DNA from: Escherichia coli
Lineage (GTDB): Bacteria; Pseudomonadota; Gammaproteobacteria; Enterobacterales; Enterobacteriaceae
Direction: 5' to 3' (one strand)
Assembly (NCBI RefSeq): GCF_024223415.1
Contig: NZ_CP100500.1
Length of the DNA: 64,000 nt
Numbering within the stretch: the stretch's first letter is position 1; the number at the start of each line of letters is the position of its first letter. The notes beneath the pieces are model-generated. The model worked only from the letters and a program-made list of their open reading frames with translations, made no database searches and was not told the DNA's origin. This document shows, one piece after another, positions 3,355 to 53,948 of this stretch. The position numbers and the translations under genes were made by a program.

Positions 3355-3368
3355 ATCAATTCCTTTTG

Positions 3369-4262: not shown

Positions 4263-4275
4263 AGAACTTCCCCGC

Positions 4276-7352: not shown

Positions 7353-7397
7353 TCAGGTATGTTCAGGCCGGGCAGTTTCCCGCCCGGTCTTCCTCAC

Positions 7398-23649: not shown

Positions 23650-23801
23650 GGTTTGGTCTCCTGCACCCTTTTTTAAATTTATATTTTTTATGTGAATATA
23701 TTGTCTCTATTTATTATTATGAATTTCAAATGAAAATCATAAATTTATTCACAATATAAATGTTTTATTGGCTGATATATATCACAGATAATTTTTAAAA
23801 T
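23650..23801 (+). promoter_or_regulatory. Extremely AT-rich cas3 upstream region (candidate H-NS-silenced promoter region)
   Basis: ~85% A+T tract directly 5' of cas3 start; H-NS repression of E. coli cas promoters is established, but no site is mapped here. Confidence 0.5.
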
Positions 23802-26501
23802 ATGCGTAAATATCCTTTAAGTTTACTGAAGGATAAAAATATTGTGACTTTCTTTGATTTCTGGGGAAAAACCCGACGCGACGAGAAAGAAGGGGGTGAC
23901 GACTATCACCTTCTTTGCTGGCATTCGCTGGATGTGGCCGCGATGGGCTATTTAATGGTTAAAAGAAATTGCTTCGGGCTGGCTGATTATTTCCGTCAAT
24001 TAGGGATTTCTGACAAGGAACAGGCGGCTCAATTTTTCGCCTGGTTGTTGTGCTGGCACGATATTGGAAAATTTGCCCGCTCATTTCAGCAACTTTACCT
24101 GCACCCACAACTCAAGGTTCCGGAAGGCGCAAGAAAGAATTACGAAAAGATCTCTCATTCAACGCTGGGCTACTGGCTGTGGCATCATTATTTAAGTGAA
24201 TGCGAAGAATTGCTTCCTGCCTCTTCACTCTCTACTCGCAAACTTAAACGTGTAATAGCGATGTGGATGCCCATGACTACCGGGCATCATGGTCGCCCGC
24301 CTGACCGTATTGATGAACTGGATAATTTTCTGCCTGAAGACAAAGCTGCCGCGCGAGATTTTCTCCTTGAAATCAAGCCACTGTTTCCGCAGCTAGAGAT
24401 CCCCGCATTCTGGGATGATGACGAGGGCGTTGAACTTATAAAACAACTTTCCTGGTATATCTCTGCAACCGTCGTACTTGCAGACTGGACAGGATCGTCA
24501 ACGCGATTTTTTCCACGCGTCGCACAGACAATGGATATTGAAGATTACTGGCAAAAGGCTTTAGTTCAGGCTCAAAACGCATTAACCGTCTTTCCTCCAA
24601 AAGCAGAAACCGCGCCTTTCACCGGAATTAATACGCTGTTTCCTTTTATTGAGAATCCGAAACCGTTACAGCAAAAGGTGCTGGATCTGGATATCAGCCA
24701 GCCAGGACCGCAGTTATTTATTCTGGAGGATGTAACCGGCGCAGGTAAAACAGAAGCGGCGCTTATCCTGGCACACAGGTTGATGGCTGCGGGTAAAGCT
24801 CAGGGTTTGTTTTTTGGCCTGCCAACAATGGCAACGGCCAATGCCATGTACGATCGGCTGGTCAAAACCTGGCTTTCTTTCTATTCGCCAGAATCCCGCC
24901 CCAGCCTGGTGCTGGCACACAGTGCCCGCACATTAATGGACCGCTTTAATGAATCACTCTGGTCCGGTGATTTAGTCGGGTCAGAAGAACCGGATGAACA
25001 AACGTTCAGTCAGGGATGTGCGGCCTGGTTTGCCGACAGTAACAAGAAGGCGTTGCTGGCTGAAATTGGCGTCGGCAAGCTGGATCAGGCGATGATGGCA
25101 GTGATGCCGTTTAAACATAATAATCTGCGGCTTCTGGGGTTGAGTAACAAAATCCTGCTGGCTGATGAGATCCACGCCTGTGACGCTTACATGTCGTACA
25201 TTCTTGAAGGGTTGATTGAGCGACAGGTGCGTGGCGGAAACAGCGTCATTTTGCTTTCTGCTACGTTATCTCAACAGCAGCGCGACAAACTTGTCGCCGC
25301 CTTTGCGCGTGGCACAGAGGGCCAGCAAGAAGCTCCGTTCCTGGAAAAGGATGATTACCCCTGGCTGACGCATGTCACGAAATCCGATGTGCATTCGCAC
25401 CGGGTAGCGACGCGCAAAGACGTTGAGCGTAGCGTGAGCGTGGGTTGGCTTCATAGCGAACAAGAATGTATTGCGCGTATCGAATCAGCGGTAAGTCAGG
25501 GGAAATGCATCGCCTGGATCCGGAATTCTGTCGATGACGCTATTAAGGTTTATCGTCAGTTACTTGCCCGCGGCGTCATTCCTGCTTCCAGCCTTTCACT
25601 TTTTCATAGCCGCTTTGCTTTTAGCGATCGCCAGCGAATTGAAACGGAAACGCTGGCACGCTTTGGTAAAAATTGTAGTTTAAAAAGATCATCTCAAGTC
25701 ATTGTTTGTACACAAGTAATTGAGCAAAGTGTGGATATTGACCTGGACGAAATGATCTCCGACCTGGCCCCCATTGATTTGCTGATCCAGCGAGCGGGGC
25801 GATTACAACGGCATATTCGCGATATTAATGGTCAGTTAAAGCGTGATGGAAAAGACGAGCGTTCCCCTCCTGAATTGCTGATTCTGGCCCCCGTCTGGGA
25901 CGACGCTCCTGGTGACGAATGGTTCGGCAGTGCCATGCGTAACAGTGCATATGTCTACCCGGATCATGGGCGAATCTGGCTGACCCAGCGTGTGCTGCGT
26001 GAGCAAGGCGTTATTCAGATGCCACACTCAGCCCGCCTTCTTATTGAATCAGTCTACGGTGAGGACGTGGTAATGCCGGACGGATTTGCCCGCAGCGAGC
26101 AGGAGCAAGTGGGCAAATATTACTGCGATCGCTCAATGGCTAAAAAGTTTGTGCTGAACTTCAGGCCCGGCTATGCCGCCAATATCAACGATTACCTTCC
26201 GGAAAAGCTGTCGACACGTCTGGCTGAGGAATCTGTTTCCCTGTGGCTGGCTAGCTGTATTAACGGCGTGGTGAAGCCTTATGCCAGCGGTGCTCACGCA
26301 TGGGAAATGAGCGTTGTCAGAGTGCGCCGAAGCTGGTGGAAAAAACATCGGGATGAGTTTTCTTTACTGGAAGGGGAAGTGTTAAGGCAGTGGTGCATTG
26401 AACAGCGGCAAGATCCGGAGATGGCAAACGTGATTTTAGTCACCGATGACGAAAGTTGCGGGTATTCGGCTACGGAAGGATTGATTGGCAAGGTTGATTG
26501 A
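23802..26501 (+). CDS. cas3: Cas3 helicase-nuclease (HD domain + SF2 helicase), type I-E
   Basis: 899-aa ORF; HD motif region (HSLDVAAMG...WHDIGK), Walker A (GAGKT) and DEAD-like (ADEIH) motifs; start ambiguous (ATG 23802 vs in-frame GTG 23844). Confidence 0.93.
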   Translation: MRKYPLSLLKDKNIVTFFDFWGKTRRDEKEGGDDYHLLCWHSLDVAAMGYLMVKRNCFGLADYFRQLGISDKEQAAQFFAWLLCWHDIGKFARSFQQLYLHPQLKVPEGARKNYEKISHSTLGYWLWHHYLSECEELLPASSLSTRKLKRVIAMWMPMTTGHHGRPPDRIDELDNFLPEDKAAARDFLLEIKPLFPQLEIPAFWDDDEGVELIKQLSWYISATVVLADWTGSSTRFFPRVAQTMDIEDYWQKALVQAQNALTVFPPKAETAPFTGINTLFPFIENPKPLQQKVLDLDISQPGPQLFILEDVTGAGKTEAALILAHRLMAAGKAQGLFFGLPTMATANAMYDRLVKTWLSFYSPESRPSLVLAHSARTLMDRFNESLWSGDLVGSEEPDEQTFSQGCAAWFADSNKKALLAEIGVGKLDQAMMAVMPFKHNNLRLLGLSNKILLADEIHACDAYMSYILEGLIERQVRGGNSVILLSATLSQQQRDKLVAAFARGTEGQQEAPFLEKDDYPWLTHVTKSDVHSHRVATRKDVERSVSVGWLHSEQECIARIESAVSQGKCIAWIRNSVDDAIKVYRQLLARGVIPASSLSLFHSRFAFSDRQRIETETLARFGKNCSLKRSSQVIVCTQVIEQSVDIDLDEMISDLAPIDLLIQRAGRLQRHIRDINGQLKRDGKDERSPPELLILAPVWDDAPGDEWFGSAMRNSAYVYPDHGRIWLTQRVLREQGVIQMPHSARLLIESVYGEDVVMPDGFARSEQEQVGKYYCDRSMAKKFVLNFRPGYAANINDYLPEKLSTRLAEESVSLWLASCINGVVKPYASGAHAWEMSVVRVRRSWWKKHRDEFSLLEGEVLRQWCIEQRQDPEMANVILVTDDESCGYSATEGLIGKVD

Positions 26502-26598
26502 GATGTCTGCGACAGGACTCTCTGAATAGTTGATATACAGAAAAGGATGGAAAGATGGACAACCGACCTGGGATGGTCTTTTTTACGAGAGGATGCGT

Positions 26599-28161
26599 AT
26601 GAACTCGTTTTCACTTCTGACAACCTCGTGGTTGCCCGTTCGTTTTAAAGACGGAACGACAGGCAAACTGGCACCAGTCGATCTGGCTGATGAAAATGTT
26701 GTCGATATCGCTGCGCCGCGGGCAGATCTCCAGGGTGCGGCATGGCAGTTTTTGCTGGGGCTACTACAAACCAGCTTCGCGCCAAAAGATCATCGTCGTT
26801 GGGATGATATCTGGGAAGACGGACTGGAATCTGAAAAGCTACGGGAAGCATTGCTGTCATTAGAACACGCTTTCCAGTTTGGGCCAGATTCCCCTTCATT
26901 TATGCAGGATTTCGAGGCGCTCACGGGAGATAAAGTTCAGATCGCTTCGTTACTGCCTGAGATTCCCGGCGCTCAAACAACGAAGTTTAATAAAGACCAT
27001 TTTATCAAGCGTGGTGTAACGGAATACCTGTGTCCTCATTGTTCAGCGTTAGCCCTGTTCTCCCTACAGTTAAATGCACCGTCAGGCGGCAAAGGCTATC
27101 GCACCGGTTTACGCGGCGGTGGGCCGATGACCACTCTTATTGAATTACAGGAATATCAGGGCAATCAACAAACACCCTTATGGCGCAAACTGTGGCTCAA
27201 TGTGATGCCGCAGGATGAAGCCGACTTACCGCTACCCAAAAAATTTGACGATCTGATTTTCCCCTGGCTTGGCCCGACGCGTACCAGCGAACTGGCCGGT
27301 GCGGTGGTAACCGATGATCAGGTTAATAAACTCCAGGCGTACTGGGGAATGCCACGGCGTATTCGTATTGATTTTAATACCACGACAGTCGGCAACTGCG
27401 ATATTTGCGGCGAGCAGAACGACGCGCTCCTGAACCTGATGACGACCAAAAATTACGGCGCTAACTATGCCATGTGGCAGCATCCCTTAACGCCTTACCG
27501 TATACCACTTAAAGAGGGTGGCGAGTTTTACTCCGTTAAACCACAACCGGGCGGTTTAATCTGGCGCGACTGGTTAGGCCTTATCGAAACGGGTAAATCA
27601 GAAAACAATACGGAACTTCCCGCGCTGGTGGTGAAACTCTTTAATGCCAGCAGTCTGAAACAGGCAAAAGTGGGCCTATGGGGATTTGGTTATGATTTCG
27701 ACAATATGAAAGCGCGCTGTTGGTACGAACACCATTTCCCGCTGCTGCTCAATAAAAAAGAAGGCCAGATACCGAAACTGCGGCTGGCTGCGCAAACGGC
27801 TTCACGGATTCTGAGTCTGTTACGGAGTGCATTGAAAGAAGCGTGGTTCTCCGATCCAAAAGGTGCACGGGGTGATTTCAGTTTTGTGGATATCGACTTC
27901 TGGAACAAAACTCAGCATCGCTTCCTGAGGTTAGTGCGCCAAATTGAAGAAGGTCAGGATCCAGATGAATTACTCGGCAAATGGCAAAAGGAAATTTGGT
28001 TATTTGCGCGTCAGGATTTTGACGAGCGTGTATTCACCAATCCTTATGAGCCCGTTGATTTGAAACGCGTCATGACCGCACGCAAGAAATATTTTACAAC
28101 ATCGGCGGAGAAGCAAAATGCTAAAGCCGCCAGGGAGAAAAAGCAGGAGGCTGCTGAATGA
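26599..28161 (+). CDS. casA: Cascade large subunit Cse1/CasA (Cas8e)
   Basis: ORF 26530-28161; preferred ATG 26599 (GAGAGG RBS); position after cas3 and size ~520 aa; sequence differs from K-12 CasA as I recall it. Confidence 0.85.
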   Translation: MNSFSLLTTSWLPVRFKDGTTGKLAPVDLADENVVDIAAPRADLQGAAWQFLLGLLQTSFAPKDHRRWDDIWEDGLESEKLREALLSLEHAFQFGPDSPSFMQDFEALTGDKVQIASLLPEIPGAQTTKFNKDHFIKRGVTEYLCPHCSALALFSLQLNAPSGGKGYRTGLRGGGPMTTLIELQEYQGNQQTPLWRKLWLNVMPQDEADLPLPKKFDDLIFPWLGPTRTSELAGAVVTDDQVNKLQAYWGMPRRIRIDFNTTTVGNCDICGEQNDALLNLMTTKNYGANYAMWQHPLTPYRIPLKEGGEFYSVKPQPGGLIWRDWLGLIETGKSENNTELPALVVKLFNASSLKQAKVGLWGFGYDFDNMKARCWYEHHFPLLLNKKEGQIPKLRLAAQTASRILSLLRSALKEAWFSDPKGARGDFSFVDIDFWNKTQHRFLRLVRQIEEGQDPDELLGKWQKEIWLFARQDFDERVFTNPYEPVDLKRVMTARKKYFTTSAEKQNAKAAREKKQEAAE

Positions 28162-28694
28162 GTATTGTAAAAGAGGAGCACAAAGCCACGCTGCGTAAAT
28201 GGCACGAAGAGTTGCAGGCTAAACGCGGCAATCGTGCCAGTCTGCGGCGTAGCACAACGGTTAATGATGTTTGCTTGTCAGAAGGGTTTCGTTCTCTGCT
28301 GATGCAGACCCACACTTTGTGGAAAATTGAAGCACAAGAGTGGCGTTTTACCGCACTGGCGCTGGTCGCCGCAGTTAGCGCCAATGTAAAAGCCATTGAT
28401 GAACGGCAGCCTTTTGCCGCGCAGCTGGCGGCGGTAATGTCGGAGGGGCGTTTTACTCGCCTGTCGGCAGTAAAAACGCCGGATGATTTACTGCGTCAGT
28501 TACGTCGCGCGGTCAAATTATTAAACGGTTCCGTCAATCTTATCTCTTTGGCAGAAGATATTTTCCGCTGGTGTCAGGAGAGCGACGACCTGCTCAATCA
28601 TCACCGCCGCCAGCAGCGGCCAACCGAATTTATCCGTATCCGCTGGGCACTGGAATATTACCAGGCTGGCGACGCCGATAACGAACAAAATTAA
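28158..28694 (+). CDS. casB: Cascade small subunit Cse2/CasB
   Basis: 178-aa ORF overlapping casA stop by 4 nt; operon position. Confidence 0.85.
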   Translation: MSIVKEEHKATLRKWHEELQAKRGNRASLRRSTTVNDVCLSEGFRSLLMQTHTLWKIEAQEWRFTALALVAAVSANVKAIDERQPFAAQLAAVMSEGRFTRLSAVKTPDDLLRQLRRAVKLLNGSVNLISLAEDIFRWCQESDDLLNHHRRQQRPTEFIRIRWALEYYQAGDADNEQN

Positions 28695-28708
28695 TAAAGG
28701 ACTATCTC

Positions 28709-29764
28709 ATGACAACATTTATTCAGCTTCATTTGTTAACCGCTTACCCTGCTGCCAACCTTAACCGTGATGATACTGGTGCGCCAAAAACTGTGGTACT
28801 GGGTGGTGCAACGCGTCTGCGCGTTTCCTCACAAAGTCTGAAACGTGCGTGGCGCACTTCTGCACTTTTTGAACAGGCACTGGCGGGCCATATTGGTATT
28901 CGCAGTGGGCGAATTGCGCGTGAGGCGGCAACTATCCTGATTGAGAAAGGAATCGAAGAGAAAAAAGCCATCGAATGGGCGGCAAAAATTGCGGATTATC
29001 TTGGGAAAGCTAAAAACGACAAAAAACCAAAAGATCCGCTCACTAACGCCGAAACTGAACAATTAGTTCATATCAGCCCGGCAGAATTTGACGCCGTAAA
29101 AGCGCTGGCCCATCAACTGGCAGAAGAAAAGCGCGCGCCAATAGAGGAAGATCTCGCGTTGTTACGTAAAGACCGTATAGCGGTAGATATCGCTATGTTT
29201 GGTCGTATGCTGGCGAATAAACCTGAGTTTAATGTTGAAGCCGCCTGCCAGGTCGCGCATGCGTTTGGTGTCAGTGAAACGATTGTCGAAGATGATTTTT
29301 TCACCGCCGTTGATGATTTGCGCCAGGCCTCTGAAGATGCCGGTGCCGGGCATCTCGGAGAAACCGGATTCGGTTCAGCACTTTTCTACACCTATATCTG
29401 CATTGATAAAGATCTGCTGGTAGAAAACCTCGGCGGTGACGAAGCGTTAGCTAATCAGACCATACGCGCTTTTACGGAAGCCGCACTTAAAGTCTCCCCA
29501 ACCGGCAAACAGAACAGCTTTGCCAGCCGTGCCTACGCCTCCTGGGCGCTGGCAGAAAAAGGCACCGAACAACCGCGTTCTCTGGCGGCGGCTTTCTATG
29601 AACCCATTAATGGCACCCGGCAGTTAGATGTGGCGGTGCAGCGTATTACAACGCTTCGCGAAAACATGAATACGGTCTACGAACAGAAGACCGAATGCGT
29701 AAGTTTTGACGTGATGAACAAACAGGGAAGCATGAAGGACGTGCTGGACTTTATCTGCGCGTAA
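28709..29764 (+). CDS. casC: Cascade backbone subunit Cas7e/CasC
   Basis: 351-aa ORF; N-terminus MTTFIQLHLLTAYPAANLNRDDTGAPK typical of Cas7e. Confidence 0.9.
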   Translation: MTTFIQLHLLTAYPAANLNRDDTGAPKTVVLGGATRLRVSSQSLKRAWRTSALFEQALAGHIGIRSGRIAREAATILIEKGIEEKKAIEWAAKIADYLGKAKNDKKPKDPLTNAETEQLVHISPAEFDAVKALAHQLAEEKRAPIEEDLALLRKDRIAVDIAMFGRMLANKPEFNVEAACQVAHAFGVSETIVEDDFFTAVDDLRQASEDAGAGHLGETGFGSALFYTYICIDKDLLVENLGGDEALANQTIRAFTEAALKVSPTGKQNSFASRAYASWALAEKGTEQPRSLAAAFYEPINGTRQLDVAVQRITTLRENMNTVYEQKTECVSFDVMNKQGSMKDVLDFICA

Positions 29765-29774
29765 GGGGCGGCTT

Positions 29775-30521
29775 ATGAGCCAATATCTGATTTTTCAGCT
29801 TCATGGGCCGATGGCATCCTGGGGCGTCGATGCTCCCGGCGAAGTGCGTCATACCCATGAACTGCCTTCGCGCTCAGCATTGCTGGGGTTACTGGCTGCC
29901 GGGGTAGGGATTCGGCGTGATGATACCGAACGATTAAACGCGTTTAACCGCCACTATTCACTGGTGGTTTGCGCCAGCCGTAACCCGCGCTGGGCACGGG
30001 ATTATCACACGGTCCAGATGCCAAAAGAGGTGCGTAAATCGCGTTATTTCAGCCGTCGCGAAGAGTTGAGCGATCCTGATCTTCTGAGCGCAATTATCTC
30101 CCGGCGCGACTACTACACCGATGCCTGGTGGATGGTGGCGGTGGCAACAACCCCCGATGCGCCTTACAGCCTTGAACAGTTGCAGGAAGGTTTACGTCAT
30201 CCGGTTTTTCCGCTTTATCTGGGGCGAAAAAGTCATCCGCTGGCATTACCACTCGCGCCGTTACTGATCGAAGGCAACGCGTCTGATGCCTTATGTAACG
30301 CATACCAACAGTATCAGGATAGTTTCCGCGAACTGAAAGTCTCACTCCCGAAACTTCAGGATGAATGCTGGTGGGAAGGGAAACACGACGGCCTGGTCGC
30401 GAGCAAAATATTACGTCGCCGGGATGTTCCTTTGAATCGTCAGCAGTGGCTGTTTGGGGAACGCACCGTCAATCAGGGGCCGTGGCTCAGCAAGGAGGAA
30501 CCATGTACCTCTCAAGAATAA
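29775..30521 (+). CDS. casD: Cascade subunit Cas5e/CasD
   Basis: 248-aa ORF; N-terminus MSQYLIFQLHGPMASWG typical of Cas5e; 3' end overlaps casE start by 19 nt. Confidence 0.88.
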   Translation: MSQYLIFQLHGPMASWGVDAPGEVRHTHELPSRSALLGLLAAGVGIRRDDTERLNAFNRHYSLVVCASRNPRWARDYHTVQMPKEVRKSRYFSRREELSDPDLLSAIISRRDYYTDAWWMVAVATTPDAPYSLEQLQEGLRHPVFPLYLGRKSHPLALPLAPLLIEGNASDALCNAYQQYQDSFRELKVSLPKLQDECWWEGKHDGLVASKILRRRDVPLNRQQWLFGERTVNQGPWLSKEEPCTSQE

Positions 30522-31149
30522 CCTTACATACCGGCCAGCTTTCGCCTGCGCAGTTGTTGCATCTGGTGGATCGCGGTGAATATGTGATGCATCAGTGGCT
30601 GTGGGATCTCTTCCCAGGCGGCAAAGAAAGGCAATTTCTTTATCGTCGGGAAGAACTCCAGGGCGCGTTTCGCTTTTTTGTCCTGTCGCAGGAACGCCCG
30701 GCGGAAAGTGAAATGTTCACCATCGAATGCCGACCATTTGCGTCGGAGTTGCGTACCGGACAATCGCTTTGTTTCAACCTGCGGGCGAATCCAACAATCT
30801 GTAAAGCGGGCAAGCGCCACGATCTGCTGATGGAAGCGAAACGGCAGGTGAGGGGGCAGGCGGAAGGAAGTGATGTCTGGTTGCATCAACAACAGGCAGC
30901 GCTGGACTGGCTGGCAGCGCAGGGGGAGAGAAGCGGTTTTACACTGCTGGATACCTCGGTTGATGCCTACCGACAACAGCAACTCCGGCGGGAAAACTCC
31001 CGACAACTGATCCAGTTCAGTAGCGTGGATTATACGGGGATGCTTACGGTCACCGATCCTGGGTTATTTCTGCAACGTCTGAGCCAGGGGTATGGCAAAA
31101 GCCGCGCGTTCGGCTGTGGTCTGATGCTGATCAAACCCGGAGCAGAGGC

Positions 31150-31153
<4 letters not shown>
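30503..31153 (+). CDS. casE: Cas6e/CasE crRNA endoribonuclease
   Basis: ORF-track call starts 30365; preferred ATG 30503 (MYLSRITLHTG..., AAGGAGG RBS), ~216 aa; C-terminal G-rich loop GYGKSRAFGCGLM. Confidence 0.9.
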
Positions 31154-32363
<1,210 letters not shown>

Positions 32364-32459: not shown

Positions 32460-33342
32460 GTGTTCCCCGCGCCAGCGGGGATAAACCGGTCAAATCGGTT
32501 ACCTTAACCTGTTGAATGTGGTGTTCCCCGCGCCAGCGGGGATAAACCGAACGGCTACGGCACCGAGGTGACAAACCAGATGTGTTCCCCGCGCCAGCGG
32601 GGATAAACCGAACTCCAGGATATTGCAAACCGCATAGTGGATGTGTTCCCCGCGCCAGCGGGGATAAACCGCCGTTGCGCTGGCATCGGGTGTACCTGTT
32701 GTGGTGTTCCCCGCGCCAGCGGGGATAAACCGCCGTTGCGCTGGCATCGGGTGTACCTGTTGTGGTGTTCCCCGCGCCAGCGGGGATAAACCGGGCTTAC
32801 ACGCCACCATGGCATCAAGAACGATGTGTTCCCCGCGCCAGCGGGGATAAACCGATTACGACTTCCGCACGCACCCACCGTTTGTAGTGTTCCCCGCGCC
32901 AGCGGGGATAAACCGTTGGGCTAGGAGGAAGAGCATCATTAACATGGGTGTTCCCCGCGCCAGCGGGGATAAACCTGAGGCGGCTAAACCGTCGCGCACA
33001 CGAGCGACGTGTTCCCCGCGCCAGCGGGGATAAACCGCGTACTGCTTACTCCGTCATCGATGTATGAGTGTGTTCCCCGCGCCAGCGGGGATAAACCGTA
33101 CGTGTCGCCGTTACAGATTTCAGTCTGTTAGTGTTCCCCGCGCCAGCGGGGATAAACCGGGCGTCCAGTGATGCTTTCTGGTGCTCGAATAGTGTTCCCC
33201 GCGCCAGCGGGGATAAACCGCACGATTTTATGTGCCGCGTTGAGGCGTGGGCGTGTTCCCCGCGCCAGCGGGGATAAACCGGGCGCACTGGATGCGATGA
33301 TGGATATCACTTAGAATTCCCCGCCCCTGCGGTAGAACACCC
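32460..33342 (+). CRISPR. Type I-E CRISPR array, 14 repeats of 29 bp plus degenerate terminal repeat; 14 spacers of 32 bp
   Basis: GTGTTCCCCGCGCCAGCGGGGATAAACCG every 61 bp from 32460 to 33253; degenerate repeat gaattccccgcccctgcggtagaacac at 33314-33342. Confidence 0.98.
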
Positions 33343-44475: not shown

Positions 44476-44541
44476 TTTGGGAAGCTTGTGTTTTTGTCGC
44501 CTGGATAAGACACGTCAGCGTCCTACCCGGCAATTTGCATC

Positions 44542-44949
44542 CTATGTGTTCATCATCTTGCGCACCAGCTGCACAAACAGCTCCTGCTCTTCTGCACTCA
44601 AACGCCCCAAAAATTCCTCATCCACGCTGTCACCAATCGGTATCGCCGCAGCAAGTATCTTTTCTCCTTCGGCAGTCAGCCAGACAAAGCGACGCCGCTT
44701 GTCAGCGGCATCATGTTCACGTCTGACTAAGCCACGATTCTCCATTCTTGCCAACATTTCTGCCAACGTTGCTTTGGTGCTGACTGCTGCTTCTATCAGT
44801 GCCACCTGTTCGATACCAGGCTTATCAGCAATGGCGCGCATCACCGCATACTGTGGTTTGGTCAGGTCAGGTAACTCGTGCTGCCAGCGAGCCGTGTGCT
44901 GCTGAAAAAGCTGTCGTAACTGATGGAACGCTTTATTTCGTAACGCCAT
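44542..44949 (-). CDS. MarR/SlyA-family transcriptional regulator
   Basis: ORF 44542-44982; preferred ATG 44949 (GGAG RBS), ~135 aa; divergent from decarboxylase operon. Confidence 0.82.
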   Translation of the reverse strand: MALRNKAFHQLRQLFQQHTARWQHELPDLTKPQYAVMRAIADKPGIEQVALIEAAVSTKATLAEMLARMENRGLVRREHDAADKRRRFVWLTAEGEKILAAAIPIGDSVDEEFLGRLSAEEQELFVQLVRKMMNT

Positions 44950-45063
44950 GTAAACTCCGGGCAAACTATCTGCCGCTATCATAGCGGTTTTTCAGTGACG
45001 AAGGGGATGTTGTTACTTTTCAGTGCTTGCCGCAATGAGAACAGAGGCGTATTTTAATAATAA

Positions 45064-45079
45064 TGTTCGTATACGAACA
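45064..45079. promoter_or_regulatory. Perfect 16-bp palindrome tgttcgtatacgaaca in MarR-decarboxylase divergent intergenic region (candidate operator)
   Basis: Self-complementary sequence read directly; 17 nt upstream of the UbiX-like start. Confidence 0.55.
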
Positions 45080-45095
45080 ATTAAGAGAGTAAGCA

Positions 45096-45689
45096 ATGAA
45101 ACTGATCGTCGGGATGACAGGGGCTACCGGTGCGCCTCTTGGTGTGGCATTACTGCAAGCGCTGCGGGAGATGCCGAATGTCGAGACTCATCTGGTGATG
45201 TCGAAGTGGGCGAAAACCACCATTGAACTGGAAACGCCTTACAGCGCCCGCGATGTTGCTGCCCTCGCTGACTTCAGCCATAACCCGGCGGATCAGGCGG
45301 CGACCATCTCCTCAGGTTCCTTTCGTACCGACGGCATGATCGTTATTCCGTGCAGTATGAAAACGCTCGCCGGTATCCGCGCTGGTTACGCTGATGGCCT
45401 GGTAGGGCGCGCGGCGGACGTCGTGCTCAAAGAAGGCCGCAAACTGGTGCTGGTGCCGCGTGAAATGCCGCTTAGCACCATCCATCTCGAAAATATGCTC
45501 GCACTTTCACGCATGGGCGTGGCGATGGTGCCGCCGATGCCTGCCTTTTATAACCATCCCGAAACGGTAGATGACATTGTCCACCACGTGGTAGCCCGCG
45601 TGCTGGATCAATTTGGCCTTGAACATCCCTACGCCAGGCGCTGGCAAGGATTGCCGCAGGCCCGGAATTTTTCTCAGGAGAATGAATAA
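45096..45689 (+). CDS. UbiX-like flavin prenyltransferase (phenolic acid decarboxylase subunit B)
   Basis: 197-aa ORF; MKLIVGMTGATGAPLGVALLQAL flavoprotein N-terminus typical of UbiX/Pad1. Confidence 0.88.
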   Translation: MKLIVGMTGATGAPLGVALLQALREMPNVETHLVMSKWAKTTIELETPYSARDVAALADFSHNPADQAATISSGSFRTDGMIVIPCSMKTLAGIRAGYADGLVGRAADVVLKEGRKLVLVPREMPLSTIHLENMLALSRMGVAMVPPMPAFYNHPETVDDIVHHVVARVLDQFGLEHPYARRWQGLPQARNFSQENE

Positions 45690-47116
45690 TGGCATTTGAT
45701 GATTTACGCAGCTTTTTACAGGCGCTTGATGACCACGGCCAGTTACTGAAAATCAGCGAAGAGGTGAACGCGGAACCGGATCTGGCTGCCGCTGCCAACG
45801 CCACCGGGCGTATCGGCGATGGTGCACCGGCGCTGTGGTTTGATAATATTCGCGGTTTTACCGATGCCCGCGTGGCGATGAATACCATCGGTTCCTGGCA
45901 GAACCACGCGATTTCCTTGGGCCTGCCGCCAAACACCCCGGTTAAAAAACAGATTGATGAGTTTATCCGCCGCTGGGATAACTTCCCGATCGCCCCGGAG
46001 CGCCGCGCCAATCCAGCCTGGGCGCAGAACACCGTCGATGGTGACGAGATTAATCTGTTCGATATCCTGCCGCTGTTTCGTTTAAACGACGGTGATGGCG
46101 GTTTCTATCTCGACAAAGCGTGCGTGGTTTCCCGCGATCCGCTCGACCCGGATAACTTCGGCAAGCAGAACGTCGGCATCTACCGCATGGAAGTGAAGGG
46201 CAAGCGTAAGCTCGGCCTGCAACCGGTGCCGATGCACGATATCGCCCTGCATCTGCATAAAGCAGAAGAGCGCGGTGAAGATCTACCGATTGCGATCACG
46301 CTCGGTAACGATCCGATCATCACGCTGATGGGCGCAACGCCACTGAAATACGATCAATCTGAGTACGAAATGGCAGGCGCGCTGCGTGAAAGCTCGTACC
46401 CGATCGCCACCGCCCCGCTGACCGGTTTTGATGTGCCGTGGGGTTCAGAAGTGATCCTCGAAGGGGTCATCGAAAGCCGTAAACGCGAAATCGAAGGGCC
46501 GTTCGGTGAGTTTACCGGACACTACTCCGGCGGGCGTAACATGACCGTGGTGCGCATCGATAAAGTCTCTTACCGCACCAGGCCGATTTTCGAATCGCTG
46601 TACCTCGGCATGCCGTGGACCGAAATCGACTACCTGATGGGGCCAGCCACCTGTGTGCCGCTGTATCAGCAACTGAAAGCCGAGTTCCCGGAAGTGCAGG
46701 CGGTAAACGCCATGTACACCCACGGCCTGCTGGCGATTATCTCCACCAAAAAACGCTACGGCGGCTTTGCCCGCGCGGTGGGCCTGCGTGCGATGACCAC
46801 GCCGCACGGTCTGGGCTACGTAAAGATGGTGATTATGGTCGATGAAGACGTTGACCCGTTCAACCTGCCGCAGGTGATGTGGGCGCTCTCCTCGAAAGTA
46901 AATCCGGCAGGGGATTTGGTGCAGTTGCCGAATATGTCCGTGCTGGAACTCGACCCTGGCTCAAGCCCGGCGGGGATCACCGACAAGCTGATTATCGACG
47001 CCACCACGCCTGTCGCCCCGGACAACTGTGGTCACTACAGCCAGCCGGTGGTGGATTTGCCGGAAACCAAAGCCTGGGCTGAAAAACTGACCGCTATGCT
47101 GGCTGCACGTAAATAA
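45689..47116 (+). CDS. UbiD-family (prenylated-FMN-dependent) aromatic acid decarboxylase, subunit C
   Basis: 475-aa ORF overlapping upstream stop; UbiD-family size and motifs. Confidence 0.85.
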   Translation: MAFDDLRSFLQALDDHGQLLKISEEVNAEPDLAAAANATGRIGDGAPALWFDNIRGFTDARVAMNTIGSWQNHAISLGLPPNTPVKKQIDEFIRRWDNFPIAPERRANPAWAQNTVDGDEINLFDILPLFRLNDGDGGFYLDKACVVSRDPLDPDNFGKQNVGIYRMEVKGKRKLGLQPVPMHDIALHLHKAEERGEDLPIAITLGNDPIITLMGATPLKYDQSEYEMAGALRESSYPIATAPLTGFDVPWGSEVILEGVIESRKREIEGPFGEFTGHYSGGRNMTVVRIDKVSYRTRPIFESLYLGMPWTEIDYLMGPATCVPLYQQLKAEFPEVQAVNAMYTHGLLAIISTKKRYGGFARAVGLRAMTTPHGLGYVKMVIMVDEDVDPFNLPQVMWALSSKVNPAGDLVQLPNMSVLELDPGSSPAGITDKLIIDATTPVAPDNCGHYSQPVVDLPETKAWAEKLTAMLAARK

Positions 47117-47126
47117 GGAGAACAAG

Positions 47127-47363
47127 ATGATTTGTCCACGTTGTGCCGATGAACAGATTGAAGTGATGGCGAAATCGCCGGTGAAAGATGTCTGGACGGT
47201 ATATCAGTGCCAGCATTGCCTTTATACCTGGCGCGATACCGAACCGCTGCGCCGTACCAGCCGCGAACATTACCCTGAAGCGTTCCGCATGACGCAGAAA
47301 GATATTGATGACGCGCCAATGGTGCCGAGCATCCCGCCGCTGCTGGCGGCAGATAAGCGCTAA
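47127..47363 (+). CDS. Small zinc-ribbon decarboxylase subunit D (BsdD/VdcD-like)
   Basis: 78-aa ORF with CPRC...CQHC four-Cys motif, immediately after the UbiD-like gene. Confidence 0.8.
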   Translation: MICPRCADEQIEVMAKSPVKDVWTVYQCQHCLYTWRDTEPLRRTSREHYPEAFRMTQKDIDDAPMVPSIPPLLAADKR

Positions 47364-47371
47364 TAAAAAGT

Positions 47372-47400
47372 GCCGGGTAGTGGCTTTGCTTTACCCGGCC
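47372..47400. terminator. Hairpin between convergent decarboxylase operon and pphB (gccgggta...tacccggc)
   Basis: 8-bp stem with 12-nt loop, flanked by A/T-rich sequence on both sides. Confidence 0.55.
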
Positions 47401-47403
47401 TCA

Positions 47404-48060
47404 TTACTTTATTTTATAAAATGACAGCCGCCCGCTTTTCGGCGATCCGGTATCAATATAAATCTGGTTAGCGAACGTCTGAATGTTATCAAACATCATA
47501 TGTCCAAATATAAAATAATCAGCGCCGTTTATTTGTTGTAACTCGCCATTAAGCGATTTCTGCACACGATCAACAGGCCAGAGTAATTCGCTCTCCGCTA
47601 TTTCTTTACCAAAGAGATATTCACTCCCCGGATAATCTGCATGTGCGATGACATATTTTATATTGTCGTTAGTGATTTCAATAATATGTGGAAGGTGATG
47701 GAATTTCAGCAACAGATCTGTAGCTTCTTTTTGCTCTGAATCATTTAAATCGAAAAACCAGTCACCACCGCTGGCAAGCCACATATTTCCATCGCCAGTT
47801 TCGAATGCATCAAGCGCCATCGCTTCGTGGTTGCCTTTAACGGAGATAAACCAGGGCTGGTTTAGCAGGCGCAGGACGTTAAGACTCTCCGGCCCACGAT
47901 CAATATTATCGCCGACAGAAATAAGTAAGTCGGTTTCGGGGAAAAAAGAGAGTTGATGTAAGCGGGATTGTAATAACTGATATTCACCATGAATATCACC
48001 AACGACCCATATATGGCGATAGTGATGGGCATTGATTTTTTGATAGCGTGTAGATGGCAT
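47404..48060 (-). CDS. pphB: Serine/threonine protein phosphatase 2
   Basis: 218-aa ORF; metallophosphatase motifs GDIHG, GDNIDRG, GNHE. Confidence 0.93.
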   Translation of the reverse strand: MPSTRYQKINAHHYRHIWVVGDIHGEYQLLQSRLHQLSFFPETDLLISVGDNIDRGPESLNVLRLLNQPWFISVKGNHEAMALDAFETGDGNMWLASGGDWFFDLNDSEQKEATDLLLKFHHLPHIIEITNDNIKYVIAHADYPGSEYLFGKEIAESELLWPVDRVQKSLNGELQQINGADYFIFGHMMFDNIQTFANQIYIDTGSPKSGRLSFYKIK

Positions 48061-48165: not shown

Positions 48166-50727
48166 TTACACCAGACTCTTCAGGCGATAAATCCATTCCA
48201 GCGCCTGACGCGGGGTGAGTGAATCTGGATCGAGGTTTTCCAGTGCCTCGACCGCAGGCGAGGTTTCTTCCGGTACGGACAGCAAAGACATTTGTGTACC
48301 ATCCACTTGCGTAGCGGCGGCGTTCGGTGAAATGCTTTCCAGCTCACGCAGTTTCTGCCGCGCGCGTTTGATCACCTCTTTTGGCACGCCGGCCAGAGCT
48401 GCAACCGCCAGGCCGTAGCTTTTGCTCGCCGCGCCATCCTGCACGCTATGCATAAAGGCAATGGTGTCGCCGTGCTCCAGTGCATCGAGATGCACGTTGG
48501 CGACGCCTTCCATTTTCTCCGGTAACTGGGTCAGCTCGAAATAGTGGGTAGCAAACAGCGTCAATGCCTTAATCTTATTCGCCAGATTTTCCGCGCACGC
48601 CCATGCCAGTGACAGACCATCGTAAGTGGACGTTCCACGCCCGATCTCATCCATTAACACCAGACTGTATTCGGTGGCGTTATGTAAAATATTGGCGGTT
48701 TCAGTCATCTCCACCATAAAGGTTGAGCGCCCGGAAGCCAGGTCATCTGCCGCGCCTACGCGGGTAAAGATGCGATCGATAGGTCCAATCTCGACTTTTT
48801 GTGCCGGTACATAGCTGCCGATGTAGGCCATCAGCGCAATCAGTGCGGTCTGGCGCATATAGGTACTTTTACCGCCCATGTTCGGGCCGGTAATAATCAA
48901 CATCCGGCGCTGCGGTGACAGATTCAGCGGGTTGGCGATAAATGGCTCGTTCAGCACCTGTTCAACCACCGGATGGCGGCCTTCGGTAATGCGAATGCCC
49001 GGTTTATCAATAAAGGTCGGGCAGGTGTAGTTCAGGGTATAGGCCCGTTCCGCCAGGTTCACCAGCACGTCGAGTTCCGCCAGCGCGCTCGCGCTCTGTT
49101 GCAACGCTTCCAGATGCGGCAACAGCAGGTCGAACAACTCTTCATAAAGCTGTTTTTCCAGTGCCAGTGCTTTGCCTTTTGAAGTGAGGACTTTATCTTC
49201 GTACTCTTTTAGCTCTGGAATGATGTAGCGCTCGGCGTTTTTCAGCGTCTGGCGACGCATATAGTTGATAGGTGCCAGATGGCTTTGCCCACGGCTGATT
49301 TGAATGTAGTAGCCGTGCACCGCATTAAAGCCAACTTTTAGCGTGTCCAGGCCGGTACGTTCACGCTCGCGGACTTCCAGACGCTCCAGATAATCGGTCG
49401 CGCCGTCAGCCAGCGCGCGCCACTCATCCAGCTCTTCGTTATAGCCTGATGCGATAACACCACCGTCGCGTACCAGCACCGGCGGTGTGTCGATGATTGC
49501 TCGCTCCAGCAGATCGCGCAGCTCGGCAAACTCGCCCATCTTCTCACGTAGCGCCTGTACTGGTGCACTATCAACAGTTTCTAACTGCGCACGCAGCTCC
49601 GGCAGTTGCTGGAAAGCGTGACGCATACGGGCCAGATCGCGTGGGCGAGCGGTACGCAACGCCAGACGCGCCAGAATACGTTCCAGGTCGCCGACCTGAC
49701 GTAGTACCGGCTGCAACTCGGCGGTGAAATCCTGCAATGCGCCAATAGTTTGCTGGCGCTCAAGCAACACGCGGGTATCGCGCACTGGCATATGCAGCCA
49801 GCGTTTCAGCATACGGCTGCCCATCGGCGTGACGGTGCAGTCGAGCACAGAAGCCAGCGTATTTTCCGCACCACCCGCCAGATTCTGGGTGATTTCCAGA
49901 TTACGACGCGTCGCGGCATCCATAATGATGCTGTCCTGCTCACGTTCCATGGTGATGGAACGAATATGCGGCAGAGTCGTACGTTGGGTATCTTTCGCAT
50001 ACTGCAACAGACAACCGGCAGCACAAAGTCCGCGCGGCGCGTTCTCGACGCCAAAACCGACCAGATCGCGAGTGCCAAATTGCAGATTCAACTGCTGGCG
50101 CGCGGTGTCGATTTCAAACTCCCACAGCGGGCGACGGCGCAGGCCGCGACGGCCTTCAATTAACGACATTTCAGCAAAATCTTCTGCATACAGCAGTTCC
50201 GCAGGATTAGTGCGTTGCAGTTCTGCCGCCATCGTTTCCCGGTCAGCCGGTTCGCTCAGGCGAAAACGACCGGAACTGATATCCAGCGTCGCGTAGCCGA
50301 AACCTTTGCTGTCCTGCCAGATAGCCGCCAGCAGGTTGTCCTGACGCTCCTGCAACAGGGCTTCATCGCTGATGGTGCCTGGCGTAACGATACGCACAAC
50401 TTTGCGCTCAACCGGACCTTTGCTGGTCGCCGGATCGCCAATTTGTTCGCAGATGGCAACGGACTCGCCCTGATTCACCAGTTTGGCGAGGTAGTTTTCC
50501 ACCGCATGATAGGGGATCCCCGCCATCGGGATCGGCTCTCCCGCTGAAGCACCGCGTTTGGTCAGTGAAATATCCAGCAGTTGCGATGCGCGTTTTGCGT
50601 CGTCATAAAACAGTTCATAAAAATCACCCATCCGGTAAAACAGCAGGATCTCGGGATGCTGGGCTTTCAGCTTGAGATACTGCTGCATCATGGGCGTATG
50701 GGCGTCGAAATTTTCTATTGCACTCAT
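48166..50727 (-). CDS. mutS: DNA mismatch repair protein MutS
   Basis: 853-aa ORF; Walker [10 protein letters not shown]; full length. Confidence 0.98.
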
Positions 50728-51013
50728 GGGGTTATGTCCGGTTCCCTGATATTAAATGGGGTGTGATGGTTTTTATTTTCGTTGTAATCACATAAGGCGC
50801 ACATGATACCGGAGTTAATCATTTCAGGGGAAGAAGCGAACGGCGAGTTCTTGATGCTGGTTCCGGGAAAGATGCTGTTTTGCAGCTTTTGCGTGATGCT
50901 TATGAAGCAAGTACGCAAAATTGCGTCGGTTGAATAAACCTCCTCCTTCAGAGCCATAGTCCCCTTTGAAATTAAGTTGTAGTATAAATACACCTTAAGA
51001 GTATGGAGGCAGC

Positions 51014-51358
51014 ATGTCCGGCAAGCGTATCTCTCGTGAAAAACTGACGATTAAAAAAATGATCGATCTTTATCAAGCGAAATGCCCGCAGGCGTCAGCG
51101 GAGCCGGAGCATTACGACGCGCTGTTTGCCTACGCGCAAAAGCGGCTGGATAAATGTGTGTTCGGCGAAGAGAAACCAGCCTGTAAGCAGTGTCCGGTGC
51201 ACTGTTACCAGCCTGCAAAGCGTGAAGAGATGAAACAGATTATGCGTTGGGCCGGGCCGAGAATGCTGTGGCGTCATCCGATCTTAACCGTGCGTCATCT
51301 CATCGATGACAAGCGTCCGGTGCCGGAGTTGCCAGAAAAATATCGTCCAAAGAAATAA
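51014..51358 (+). CDS. ygbA: Nitrous-oxide-stimulated-promoter family protein YgbA (Cys-rich)
   Basis: 114-aa ORF; synteny next to mutS. Confidence 0.85.
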   Translation: MSGKRISREKLTIKKMIDLYQAKCPQASAEPEHYDALFAYAQKRLDKCVFGEEKPACKQCPVHCYQPAKREEMKQIMRWAGPRMLWRHPILTVRHLIDDKRPVPELPEKYRPKK

Positions 51359-51362
51359 ATCT

Positions 51363-51385
51363 GCCGGAGAGCCATACTCTCCGGC
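51363..51385. terminator. Hairpin between convergent ygbA and TOBE gene (gccggagag-ccata-ctctccggc)
   Basis: Perfect 9-bp stem, 5-nt loop; read directly. Confidence 0.6.
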
Positions 51386-51396
51386 AAATAAGGCGT

Positions 51397-51825
51397 TTAC
51401 GCTTTGGTGGCAATCAGGATGGCTGATGCTTTGATCAATGCAATAACGCGTGAGCCAGTGGTGAGTTTCATTTCATCCTGACTTTCATTTGTTACCACTG
51501 CCACAATTTCAAAACCCGCATCCGTTTTGATATGGACAGTGGCGTTCACTGCGCCTTCGGTGATTGTCGACACGCTGCCAGCAAACTGGTTGCGAGCAGA
51601 GAATTTCAGTCCACAGTCTTCCGTTGCCAGCGTTACCCACGGGGCTTTAATCAGGGCAATCGCTTCTTTCCCTTTCGCCAGACCCAGAGCCTGCTGGCTG
51701 CTGTGAGTCACAATTGCCACCAGCTTTGCACCACCTGCCAGCGTCAGTTCTAATTCGTCATTCACCGCGCCCATTGCTACTGCGCTAACTGTTCCGGTTA
51801 ATTGATTTCTTGCTGAAACTGCCAT
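51397..51825 (-). CDS. Tandem TOBE-domain (Mop/ModG-like) molybdate/tungstate-binding protein
   Basis: ORF 51397-51864; preferred ATG 51825 (AAAGGAGG RBS), ~142 aa; two ~70-aa repeats each starting SARNQ.(T/A)G.VS. Confidence 0.8.
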   Translation of the reverse strand: MAVSARNQLTGTVSAVAMGAVNDELELTLAGGAKLVAIVTHSSQQALGLAKGKEAIALIKAPWVTLATEDCGLKFSARNQFAGSVSTITEGAVNATVHIKTDAGFEIVAVVTNESQDEMKLTTGSRVIALIKASAILIATKA

Positions 51826-51869
51826 ACTGCCTCCTTTCATTGAATGTTGATCGAGTATAACCACATCTG

Positions 51870-53948
51870 TTAAATCAATGCCGATTTATCAATTCCCAGT
51901 CGCTTCATCCGTGACAGCAGGGTCGTGCGTTTCAGCCCCAGACGTTGCGCAGCGCCTTTAGGCCCGGCAACCACGCCGTTAGTTTCTTTCAGCACGCGAA
52001 CAATCAACTGATATTCATCTTCGCCCTCCTGAGCGACAACCGTTGCGGCAGGCGGCGTTTCAGGCTCCGGTAAAGCAATATCTGGCAATGACAGCTGCAG
52101 CACGTTGCCGCGTGTTAGCAATACCGCGCGCTCAATGACGTTTTCCAGTTCGCGTACGTTACCCGGCCACTCCATATTGCTCAAGGTGCGCAACGTCTCG
52201 GCAGGAATGCTGTCGATATTGCGCCCCAGACGACGGGCAATTTTGAAGGTAAAGGCTTTCGCCAGCAGCGGAATATCTTCCGGACGCTCGCGTAGTGGCG
52301 GAAGGTGAATCGGGAATACGTTCAGGCGGTAATAGAGATCGCTACGGAACTCACGGTCGGCGACCATTTTTTTCAGATCGCGGTTAGTCGCGGCGATTAG
52401 ACGCACGTCCGTCTGAATGATTTTGTTGCTGCCGAGGCGTTCAAACTCCTGTTCCTGCAATACACGCAGCAACTTCGGCTGTAACTCCAGTGGCATATCG
52501 CCCACTTCGTCGAGGAACAGGGAGCTTTTATCCGCCAGTTCAAAACGACCAATGCGCTGGGCGCTGGCACCAGTAAAAGCCCCACGTTCATGACCAAACA
52601 GATCGCTCTCCAGCAATCCGGCAGGCATCGCCGCGCAGTTCATTTTGACCATGCGGCGATTATTACGCCCACTGAGATTATGGATAGCACGGGCAATCAG
52701 CTCTTTACCCGTGCCAGTTTCACCGAGGATCAGCACGGTACTGTCACTTTGCGCCACCATTTCAACTTGTTTAAGCACGCTGTACATGGCTTCGCTGCGG
52801 CCAATAATCTCGCCAAATTCACTATCAACATTGTTGAGCTGCTCGGTCAGGGCGAGGTTTTCATCAACCAGCCGTTCTTTCAGACGATGGATTTCCTGAT
52901 AGGCGAGGGCGTTATCGACAGCGATTGCCACACGTTCGGCAATCTGGCGCAGTAAATTCAGATTGGTAGTGGTAAACACTTTCTCTTCACATTGCGCCAG
53001 TTTCAGCACGCCCAGCATGGTGTCGCCAGACATCAGCGGTAACAGGCACAAGGTTTGAATCTGGTTGCCCCAGGTGTCGAACAACATGCGTTCGTAGGGG
53101 GCTAAATTATCTCGTTCGTGGAGATTGATCAGCAGCATCTCTTTACTTTTGAACACGCGTTCGGTGAGGGTTCCGGCTTCATCGACTTCGCTCTGTTCGT
53201 GGGCGGGATGTTGTTTATCAAGATAGTGAGTGGAGTAGATGTTGAGTTTGTTTTTACGGTGGCTGCGTAAGACAATGCTGATATCGTCAATGTCGAAATA
53301 GTAATGGATTTCTTTGGCGACTTCGCTGACCAGTTCGTCCATATCCAGGCGGGAAAGCACCGCGTTGGTGATGGCGACCAGGATGCGGAAGTTATCGCGT
53401 TCCCGGCATAACAACTCATAGTCGACATTGTTAACGACGCGACTCTGGATTTGTTCGGTGACGACAGAAACGATCTGCGTAAATGTTTGCAGACGATTGA
53501 ACTCTTTTTCGCTCCAGGGGCGATCGTCATAACGAATAAATTCACAGCCACCAAAAATATGCCCTTCCGCCGCCAGTGGCATCAGGCAATAGTGACCAAA
53601 TTTGGGGTATAGCCCACCTGCGGCCAGCTGCGGCCAGGTTTCACAAAATTCTTCGTAACTGCAATGCAGCGTATCAGGGCGCGACAAAATGCTGCGTACC
53701 GGACCGTGTGCCAGAACAGTTTCGTCTTCATATTTAATGGGGGTGTCTTTTTCACGCGATGCGTAATAAGACGCACGTTGAGTCTGCGCTTGCCACAACA
53801 CAATAGCCGCGTTGTCGGCGAGCGCAGAACGCTTTACCAGTTGCGAAAGAGCCTCACACAGCGAGGCCAGATCGGGCTGCTGCAATAGTGTCCGAGTGAT
53901 GTCGAACAACCCTTGCTGTCCGAGATCACTCATCGGTGTATATGACAT
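51870..53948 (-). CDS. fhlA: Formate hydrogenlyase transcriptional activator (sigma-54-dependent)
   Basis: ORF-track start 53984; preferred ATG 53948 (MSYTPMSDLGQQ...) giving 692 aa; AAA+ sigma-54 activator motifs (GETGTGKE, GAFTGA). Confidence 0.96.
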   Translation of the reverse strand: MSYTPMSDLGQQGLFDITRTLLQQPDLASLCEALSQLVKRSALADNAAIVLWQAQTQRASYYASREKDTPIKYEDETVLAHGPVRSILSRPDTLHCSYEEFCETWPQLAAGGLYPKFGHYCLMPLAAEGHIFGGCEFIRYDDRPWSEKEFNRLQTFTQIVSVVTEQIQSRVVNNVDYELLCRERDNFRILVAITNAVLSRLDMDELVSEVAKEIHYYFDIDDISIVLRSHRKNKLNIYSTHYLDKQHPAHEQSEVDEAGTLTERVFKSKEMLLINLHERDNLAPYERMLFDTWGNQIQTLCLLPLMSGDTMLGVLKLAQCEEKVFTTTNLNLLRQIAERVAIAVDNALAYQEIHRLKERLVDENLALTEQLNNVDSEFGEIIGRSEAMYSVLKQVEMVAQSDSTVLILGETGTGKELIARAIHNLSGRNNRRMVKMNCAAMPAGLLESDLFGHERGAFTGASAQRIGRFELADKSSLFLDEVGDMPLELQPKLLRVLQEQEFERLGSNKIIQTDVRLIAATNRDLKKMVADREFRSDLYYRLNVFPIHLPPLRERPEDIPLLAKAFTFKIARRLGRNIDSIPAETLRTLSNMEWPGNVRELENVIERAVLLTRGNVLQLSLPDIALPEPETPPAATVVAQEGEDEYQLIVRVLKETNGVVAGPKGAAQRLGLKRTTLLSRMKRLGIDKSALI

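Follow-up and report, generated by a model that had tools for sequence, protein, structure and literature searches.

A ModG-type di-Mop protein encoded directly behind fhlA in Escherichia coli: a putative molybdate buffer apparently lost from K-12

In a 64,000-nucleotide (64-kb) stretch of Escherichia coli DNA, hereafter the window, the formate hydrogenlyase (FHL) activator gene fhlA is directly followed by a gene, here called mop, that encodes a 142-aa protein composed of two tandem Mop/TOBE domains. We favor, with moderate confidence, the reading that its product is a ModG-type molbindin serving as an FHL-linked molybdate buffer or store, that mop is the last gene of an ancestral hypABCDE-fhlA unit, and that a single loss of ~466 bp removed it in the lineage of K-12 and O157:H7. 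The protein is an ordinary member of a known family, found in a suggestive context. The presence/absence polymorphism has already been published, with the gene as CFT073 c3292, and the gene is already annotated in RefSeq. Our analysis corrects the polarity of this polymorphism, which reads as a loss in K-12 and not a gain in pathogens, as well as a published "modE" label.

Molybdenum handling and FHL regulation were worked out in K-12-type strains (e.g., PMC3149613), and K-12 itself has no stand-alone gene here. This makes it the exception with respect to a member of the FHL regulatory operon: mop is carried by ~35% of complete E. coli genomes, including the major extraintestinal pathogens ST131, CFT073, and Nissle-type strains, and by most of the related genera sampled. 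Should the mop protein buffer molybdate, anaerobic formate metabolism might depend on it in settings of scarce molybdate or competing tungstate, such as the gut or the urinary tract. The searchable open-access full text, with supplementary tables outside its scope, held no functional, expression, or fitness data on mop or its enterobacterial orthologues.

Table 1. Features of the fhlA-mop-ygbA locus in window coordinates
Feature	Coordinates	Strand	Basis or remark
ygbA, 114 aa	51014..51358	+	PF11756, E 4.2e-41; convergent with mop
Segment without K-12 similarity, 513 bp	51356..51868	.	47 bp in K-12 MG1655; net difference 466 bp
Intrinsic-terminator hairpin, 14-bp stem then UUAUUUCUUU	51359..51389	-	Terminator scan and RNA fold
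mop CDS, 142-aa di-Mop (ModG-like) protein	51397..51825	-	ORF; RefSeq CDS; PF03459, TIGR00638, and ModG matches
Mop repeat 2, residues 73-142	51400..51609	-	Alignments, residue mapping, orthologue conservation
Mop repeat 1, residues 1-70	51616..51825	-	Alignments to ModG, ModE, Tub, and MopII; residue mapping
fhlA-mop spacer, 44 nt	51826..51869	-	Scan: no terminator-like or sigma-70 promoter-like site
Shine-Dalgarno AGGAGG	51830..51835	-	Sequence; 4 nt upstream of the mop ATG
fhlA, formate hydrogenlyase transcriptional activator, 692 aa	51870..53948	-	RefSeq annotation; directly upstream of mop

Domain content and ligand residues of the mop protein

The mop open reading frame has the same coordinates as the RefSeq CDS in strain SCU-316 (99.9-100% identical), reading from an ATG at 51825 on the minus strand to the stop codon at 51397-51399, which is included in the CDS. 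A longer, GTG-started frame of 155 aa (51864) was rejected, as it has no ribosome-binding site and both the orthologues and RefSeq use the ATG. The absence of such a site from the GTG form, together with a length of 142 aa in all 47 orthologues of the conservation-analysis set, identifies the ATG as the start, and the GGAG core at the Shine-Dalgarno position is kept in all related loci. RefSeq names the product "TOBE domain-containing protein" or "molybdopterin-binding protein," and the equivalent gene in CFT073 is c3292.

Profile searches placed the protein firmly in the Mop/TOBE family, as the original prediction of two such repeats in ~142 aa had held. The profile check that it had proposed, with Pfam TOBE (PF03459), gave matches in two stretches (E 2.6e-34; 117.7 bits against a cut-off of 22.3 bits), and TIGR00638 (Mop) matched with an E of 1.9e-41 (139.9 bits; cut-off, 55 bits). 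In a Pfam scan of the 142 aa, no domain other than TOBE scored above its cut-off. We defined a ModG-type di-Mop molbindin as a protein of about 14-15 kDa with two tandem Mop domains and no other domain, and the mop protein holds two tandem Mop domains and nothing else within its 142 aa. The repeats, which begin SARNQLTGTVS (residue 4) and SARNQFAGSVS (residue 76), are identical to each other at 29 of 68 positions. The best solved relative is the cytoplasmic molybdate-binding protein ModG (1H9J), which aligned over the full length with an E of 1.2e-32 and 48% identity over 140 columns. An AlphaFold model of the mop protein, built on 14 sequences, reached a pLDDT of 95.4, and its top Foldseek match was again 1H9J (TM 0.95; rmsd, 1.4 A).

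The residues expected to contact the oxyanion could be mapped from the numbering of the homologous tungstate-binding protein Tub, for which two kinds of binding site have been described and stated to resemble those of ModG, Mop, and ModE (PMC11980592). One is formed by the backbone of Ala20-Val21-Asn22 from three chains, and the other by Ser4, Arg6, Lys60, and Ala61 of one chain together with Ser40 of the next (PMC11980592). Accordingly, we looked for a Ser/Arg/Thr/Lys/Ala site at subunit interfaces and an Ala-Val-Asn loop on the three-fold axis. The corresponding positions are S4, R6, A20-V21-N22, T40, K60, and A61 in repeat 1 and S76, R78, A92-V93-N94, T112, K132, and A133 in repeat 2, so that the predicted ligand set is complete in both. 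Position 40, a serine in Tub, is threonine in the mop protein and, in these alignments, in ModG. Across the 47 orthologues, the ligand positions of both repeats are invariant or nearly so.

The retention of the ligand motif in both repeats points to a storage-like ModG type rather than a ModE type. Given the identity to ModG, the TM of 0.95, and the retention of all oxyanion-ligand positions, the mop protein is most likely a cytoplasmic buffer of molybdate or tungstate. Comparison with the orthologues yielded dN/dS values of 0.02-0.11, which, together with the fixed length of 142 aa, show that mop is maintained by selection. Decay of mop into a remnant that no longer functions in E. coli is very improbable, even though the gene was lost without obvious cost in the K-12/O157 lineage and one genome holds a truncated copy (29% coverage): the low dN/dS, the constant length, the invariant ligand residues, and a strong, conserved ribosome-binding site all speak against decay, as does the coverage of at least 80% of the gene in 1889 of the 1892 E. 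coli copies.

Transcription unit and formate hydrogenlyase setting

The coordinates agree with the predicted layout, in which mop is convergent to ygbA and directly downstream of fhlA, whose product is 99% identical to the FhlA of K-12. Between the fhlA stop codon (51870-51872) and the mop ATG lie 44 nt, and not the 45 originally given; the short spacing and the strong ribosome-binding site (AGGAGG) that had been pointed out were both found. A sigma-70 promoter scan of 50700-52300 returned no match. The only terminator-like site on the mop strand here is a hairpin with a U-rich tail, which starts 7 nt past the mop stop codon, between the convergent mop and ygbA, and folds at -29.5 kcal/mol (z -4.2). 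Because the spacer contains no promoter- or terminator-like site and a strong terminator follows mop, read-through from fhlA is the likeliest source of transcription, and mop is probably co-transcribed with fhlA, a suggestion of the original prediction that remains plausible. Between ygbA and mutS, RefSeq lists a hypothetical protein (WP_000611926.1) encoded by a 44-codon ORF at 50803-50937, of which strain 042 has a variant; the ORF overlaps the region where the ygbA promoter probably lies.

One element of the spacer deserves separate mention. At 51854-51862, ~30 nt upstream of the mop ATG, lies GGTTATACT, of the form GG(C/T)TATACT, which is conserved in Escherichia, Citrobacter, and Kluyvera, is represented by CTATAA in Pluralibacter and its relatives, and is not conserved in Klebsiella. 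No matching -35 element was found for it. This TATACT-like element might be the -10 box of a promoter belonging to mop itself, or another signal, and an own promoter would weaken the claim of co-transcription. The motif TATAT-N6-8-TAYAT, which we take to be the ModE operator consensus, occurs nowhere in the window, nor near mop when two mismatches are allowed. An Rfam scan of the window at gathering thresholds detected no RNA family near mop and no Moco riboswitch. Its sole match was sok (RF01794; 110 bits), part of a hok/sok toxin-antitoxin locus at 23315-23472 between cysH and cas3, where RefSeq annotates a Hok/Gef family protein.

From this layout, the following course can be proposed. In the ancestral enterobacterial transcription unit hypABCDE-fhlA, mop would be the final gene, transcribed by read-through from fhlA, with transcription stopping at the hairpin just past it. 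The product would be a small, cytoplasmic ModG-type "molbindin" composed only of two Mop/TOBE domains, made whenever the cell readies formate hydrogenlyase and subject to the same anaerobic and formate control as fhlA. By analogy with ModG, it would form a trimer, equal to six Mop domains, whose subunit interfaces would provide sites of two kinds for as many as eight ions of molybdate or tungstate; its task alongside FHL would be to buffer or store molybdate. One loss of ~466 bp would then have removed mop in the K-12/O157:H7 lineage, with CFT073, ST131, Nissle 1917, E2348/69, 042, and IAI39 keeping it.

Formate dehydrogenase-H (FDH-H) requires the molybdenum cofactor. Moreover, full expression of fdhF and hyc in K-12 depends on molybdate and ModE (PMC3149613). 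These two dependencies make a molybdate buffer produced alongside the FHL regulator plausible, and a link between molybdenum supply and FHL is a reasonable interpretation of the genomic context. The link is not universal, as some orthologues lie without fhlA or hyp upstream. Since K-12 and O157:H7 run FHL without mop, the gene is dispensable for FHL under laboratory conditions.

The same context would also accommodate a regulatory partner instead of a store, that is, a molybdate sensor acting on ModE or FhlA, perhaps through mixed oligomers with the di-Mop domain of ModE, and thereby conveying molybdenum status to the transcription of fdhF, hyc, and hyp. We consider this unlikely. In 36 of 49 loci, mop does lie directly behind the FHL regulator gene, its fold is close to that of the E. 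coli ModE di-Mop domain, and in Rhodobacter capsulatus a Mop molbindin reportedly interacts with the ModE-like regulator MopB. However, the mop protein has no DNA-binding domain, and both of its repeats carry complete ligand sets, like storage-type ModG and unlike ModE. The requirement for ModE and molybdate in full hyc and fdhF expression (PMC3149613) would fit a regulatory partner, yet K-12 achieves this molybdate-dependent regulation of FHL without mop, and orthologues exist in contexts that lack fhlA. A more ambitious version appears improbable to us. In it, the di-Mop protein would provide the FHL regulon with a molybdenum input of its own: as a partner of FhlA and/or ModE, the ancestral protein would have adjusted fdhF/hyc/hyp expression or FDH-H maturation to the molybdate supply, a layer of control that K-12 would have lost. 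If this were true, the textbook model of FHL control would not hold for about one-third of E. coli or for most other Enterobacteriaceae.

The identity of the ion raises a further alternative, to which we likewise assign a low probability: the protein may mainly handle tungstate, either sequestering it (tungstate competes with molybdate and yields inactive molybdoenzymes) or supplying tungsten, in which case "TudG" would be a better name than ModG. Mop domains bind tungstate and molybdate similarly, the ModE di-Mop domain was crystallized with tungstate (1H9R), and nothing in the sequence of the mop protein allows a preference to be derived. In a survey of gut microbes, many two-TOBE ModG-type proteins were predicted to work with tungsten, but the criterion there for tungsten use was that TupA or a tungsten oxidoreductase be present (PMC11980592); none of these is encoded within the 64-kb window, and the neighboring pathway is that of a molybdenum enzyme.

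Ancestry and distribution of the gene

A synteny scan of 49 related loci, with one genome per species, located fhlA directly upstream of mop on the same strand in 36. This order occurs in E. albertii, a cryptic Escherichia clade, Citrobacter, Pseudocitrobacter, Klebsiella, and Raoultella, as well as in Kluyvera, Pluralibacter, Enterobacter, Kosakonia, Yokenella, and Lelliottia, and the spacer measures 36-56 nt in most genera. In the related loci, ygbA lies convergent just downstream of mop, or past sitABCD where that operon is present, in keeping with a report that both ygbA and sitABCD have long been part of this locus (PMC7232297). Among the loci without fhlA, mop directly follows hypE in two Phytobacter genomes and one Kosakonia genome, whereas the orthologues in Serratia, Cedecea, and Edwardsiella (unrelated neighbors) and at two loci behind asc genes have neither fhlA nor hyp upstream.

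Synonymous divergence of mop resembled that of its neighbors. Against E. albertii, dS was 0.36 for mop, 0.60 for fhlA, 0.33 for ygbA, and 0.53 for mutS; against the cryptic Escherichia clade, it was 0.22 for mop and 0.19-0.40 for the flanking genes; and against Citrobacter, it was 1.13 for mop and 1.40 for fhlA. The G+C content of mop (50.6%) is likewise close to that of fhlA and ygbA (51-52%). Together, the fhlA-mop synteny across genera, the flank-like dS, and the neighbor-like G+C content indicate that mop is an ancestral enterobacterial gene and that the K-12 state is a loss.

The original prediction had described the gene as "inserted" between ygbA and fhlA, a description that these comparisons contradict; horizontal acquisition of an accessory gene at this site in some E. 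coli lineages is highly improbable in our estimate. It is true that mop is absent from K-12, that its frequency among complete E. coli genomes is only 35%, and that the fhlA-mutS interval is a known hotspot of island acquisition (PMC7232297). A Salmonella homologue beside an IS21 fragment also indicates that the gene can move. Nevertheless, the gene occupies the same position and orientation in E. albertii, the cryptic Escherichia clade, and more than 10 other genera, its dS and G+C content are like those of the flanking genes, the 513-bp segment showed neither genes of mobile elements nor flanking repeats, and one junction is common to all 3507 gene-less genomes. The term "accessory" applies to mop only with regard to its frequency of 35% among complete E. 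coli genomes.

Some Salmonella enterica genomes have an 88%-identical di-Mop gene away from the fhlA locus, beside an IS21 IstB fragment (copies at L054 6001-6429 and L055 4025-4453), suggesting that the di-Mop gene has also moved horizontally. This copy lies ~3 kb from genes for a sulfite-oxidase-family molybdoenzyme and a cytochrome b.

In K-12 MG1655, fhlA and ygbA are 36 nt apart with no gene between them, as the original prediction had supposed. BLAST similarity between the window and K-12 ends at 51869, one base past the fhlA stop codon, and restarts at 51355, in the last sense codon of ygbA. The terminator hairpin of K-12 is related but altered (GCCGGACAG...CTGTCCGGC vs GCCGGAGAG...CTCTCCGGC), with a compensatory C/G to G/C change in the stem between the two forms (window 51350-51395 compared with K-12). 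YgbA has 114 aa here and 117 aa in K-12, and the similarity ends exactly at the stop codon. A clean microhomology deletion between the stop-codon regions (TAAC, TAAAC) was rejected, because the 47 bp of K-12 mismatch the predicted product; with the compensatory hairpin changes and the three additional ygbA codons, the remaining 47 bp are not a clean deletion product.

The comparison of the fhlA-ygbA interval across E. coli that had been called for covered 5426 complete genomes. A mop gene was present in 1892 of them (35%), always as a single chromosomal copy; all but three of these copies (1889) cover at least 80% of the gene, and one genome has the truncated copy, with 29% coverage. The K-12-type junction, counted at ≥80% coverage of a 161-bp probe, was found in 3507, O157:H7 strains among them. 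Carriers include ST131, Nissle 1917, and E. coli 042, whose phylogroups we take to be B2 and D. The simplest reading is a single loss of ~466 bp in the E. coli lineage containing K-12 and O157:H7, a reading based on the shared junction, a handful of strains, and presumed phylogroups rather than a tree.

These results can be set against earlier reports. CFT073 and E2348/69 have the gene and MG1655 and EDL933 lack it (PMC4209514), and it is also carried by IAI39, E. albertii, and E. fergusonii (PMC7232297). The fhlA-mutS amplicons of Ewers et al. measured 1673 bp in CFT073 and 1208 bp in MG1655 and EDL933 (PMC4209514), a difference of 465 bp that matches the 466 bp measured here. The long amplicon was described as limited to pattern III (B2) strains (PMC4209514); the distribution of mop is wider than this, as the window and strain 042 carry it with a different mutS-rpoS arrangement. 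Lerminiaux et al. named the gene "transcriptional regulator modE" (PMC7232297), which is wrong, since the mop protein has no counterpart of the DNA-binding half of ModE.

Other intervals of the window are also of note. Its mutS-rpoS region (44500-48060) contains pphB, three genes for hydroxyarylic acid decarboxylase subunits (B, C, and D), and a MarR/SlyA-like regulator gene, an arrangement shared with E. coli 042 but unlike that of K-12 and unlike the B2 "pattern III." Between queE and eno (1295-4878), a LemA-family gene and three TPM-domain genes are present, as in strain 042; K-12 presumably has only ygcG there. The main type I-E CRISPR array (32460-33281; 14 repeats) adjoins a complete cas3-casABCDE-cas1-cas2 set (~23800-32070). 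A pattern search further revealed a second type I-E array of 12 repeats at 61-bp spacing between ygcE and queE (6061-6760), past which repeat-like translations go on near 7263-7400; Tandem Repeats Finder reported none at the second array, and the RefSeq record of SCU-316 (99.9% identical) has no feature there. The window and SCU-316 differ in two places, namely, the spacers at ~32733-32947 and ~90 bp at 6089-6183 inside the second array.

Resemblance to known molbindins and Mop-containing proteins

The closest counterpart of the mop protein is ModG of Azotobacter vinelandii (1H9J, 1H9K, 1H9M), which also consists of two Mop domains alone (~145 residues compared with 142) and has the SARN, AVN, T, and KA ligand motifs in both repeats. 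ModG forms a trimer with eight binding sites, an assembly predicted for the mop protein by analogy. The contexts differ: Azotobacter modG presumably sits in the mod locus, whereas mop follows fhlA in the hydrogenase-maturation/FHL regulator operon of non-diazotrophic enterics, with fhlA and ygbA as its neighbors and no mod or nif genes within the 64-kb window. ModG has been linked with molybdenum homeostasis and with the synthesis of the nitrogenase cofactor (PMC11980592).

Another resemblance is to ModC-type ABC ATPases, which have the TOBE family in common with mop (TIGR02142 partial match, E 2.4e-12; 3D31, TM 0.75). An identity as ModC or another ABC ATPase was rejected, as the protein has no ATPase domain and TIGR02142 and NF040840 align only through their C-terminal TOBE part, at 47-48 bits against cut-offs of 285-440.

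The C-terminal di-Mop domain of E. coli ModE (1H9S, 1O7L, 1B9M) has the same two-Mop fold (TM 0.88-0.89; 33-35% identity), and its first repeat has SARNQ and KAPWV in common with the mop protein. In the second Mop domain of ModE, the ligand motif is gone, with NADNQ in place of SARNQ, whereas the mop protein keeps the motif twice, and only ModE has an N-terminal DNA-binding domain. An identity as the ModE regulator was rejected as well, because the NCBIfam ModE model (NF007957) scored 87 bits against a cut-off of 369 and the alignment covers only ModE residues 124-261.

Finally, the single-domain molbindins of ~70 aa, namely, Clostridium pasteurianum Mop (1GUG), 1FR3 (which we take to be the Mop of Sporomusa), and Eubacterium limosum Tub (9BEB), align end to end with each mop repeat (E 1e-5 to 5e-9). 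They have the same ligand positions as the mop repeats, each of which is 40% identical to Tub. The hexamer of a single-domain molbindin is built from six separate chains, whereas the fused mop protein would need three.
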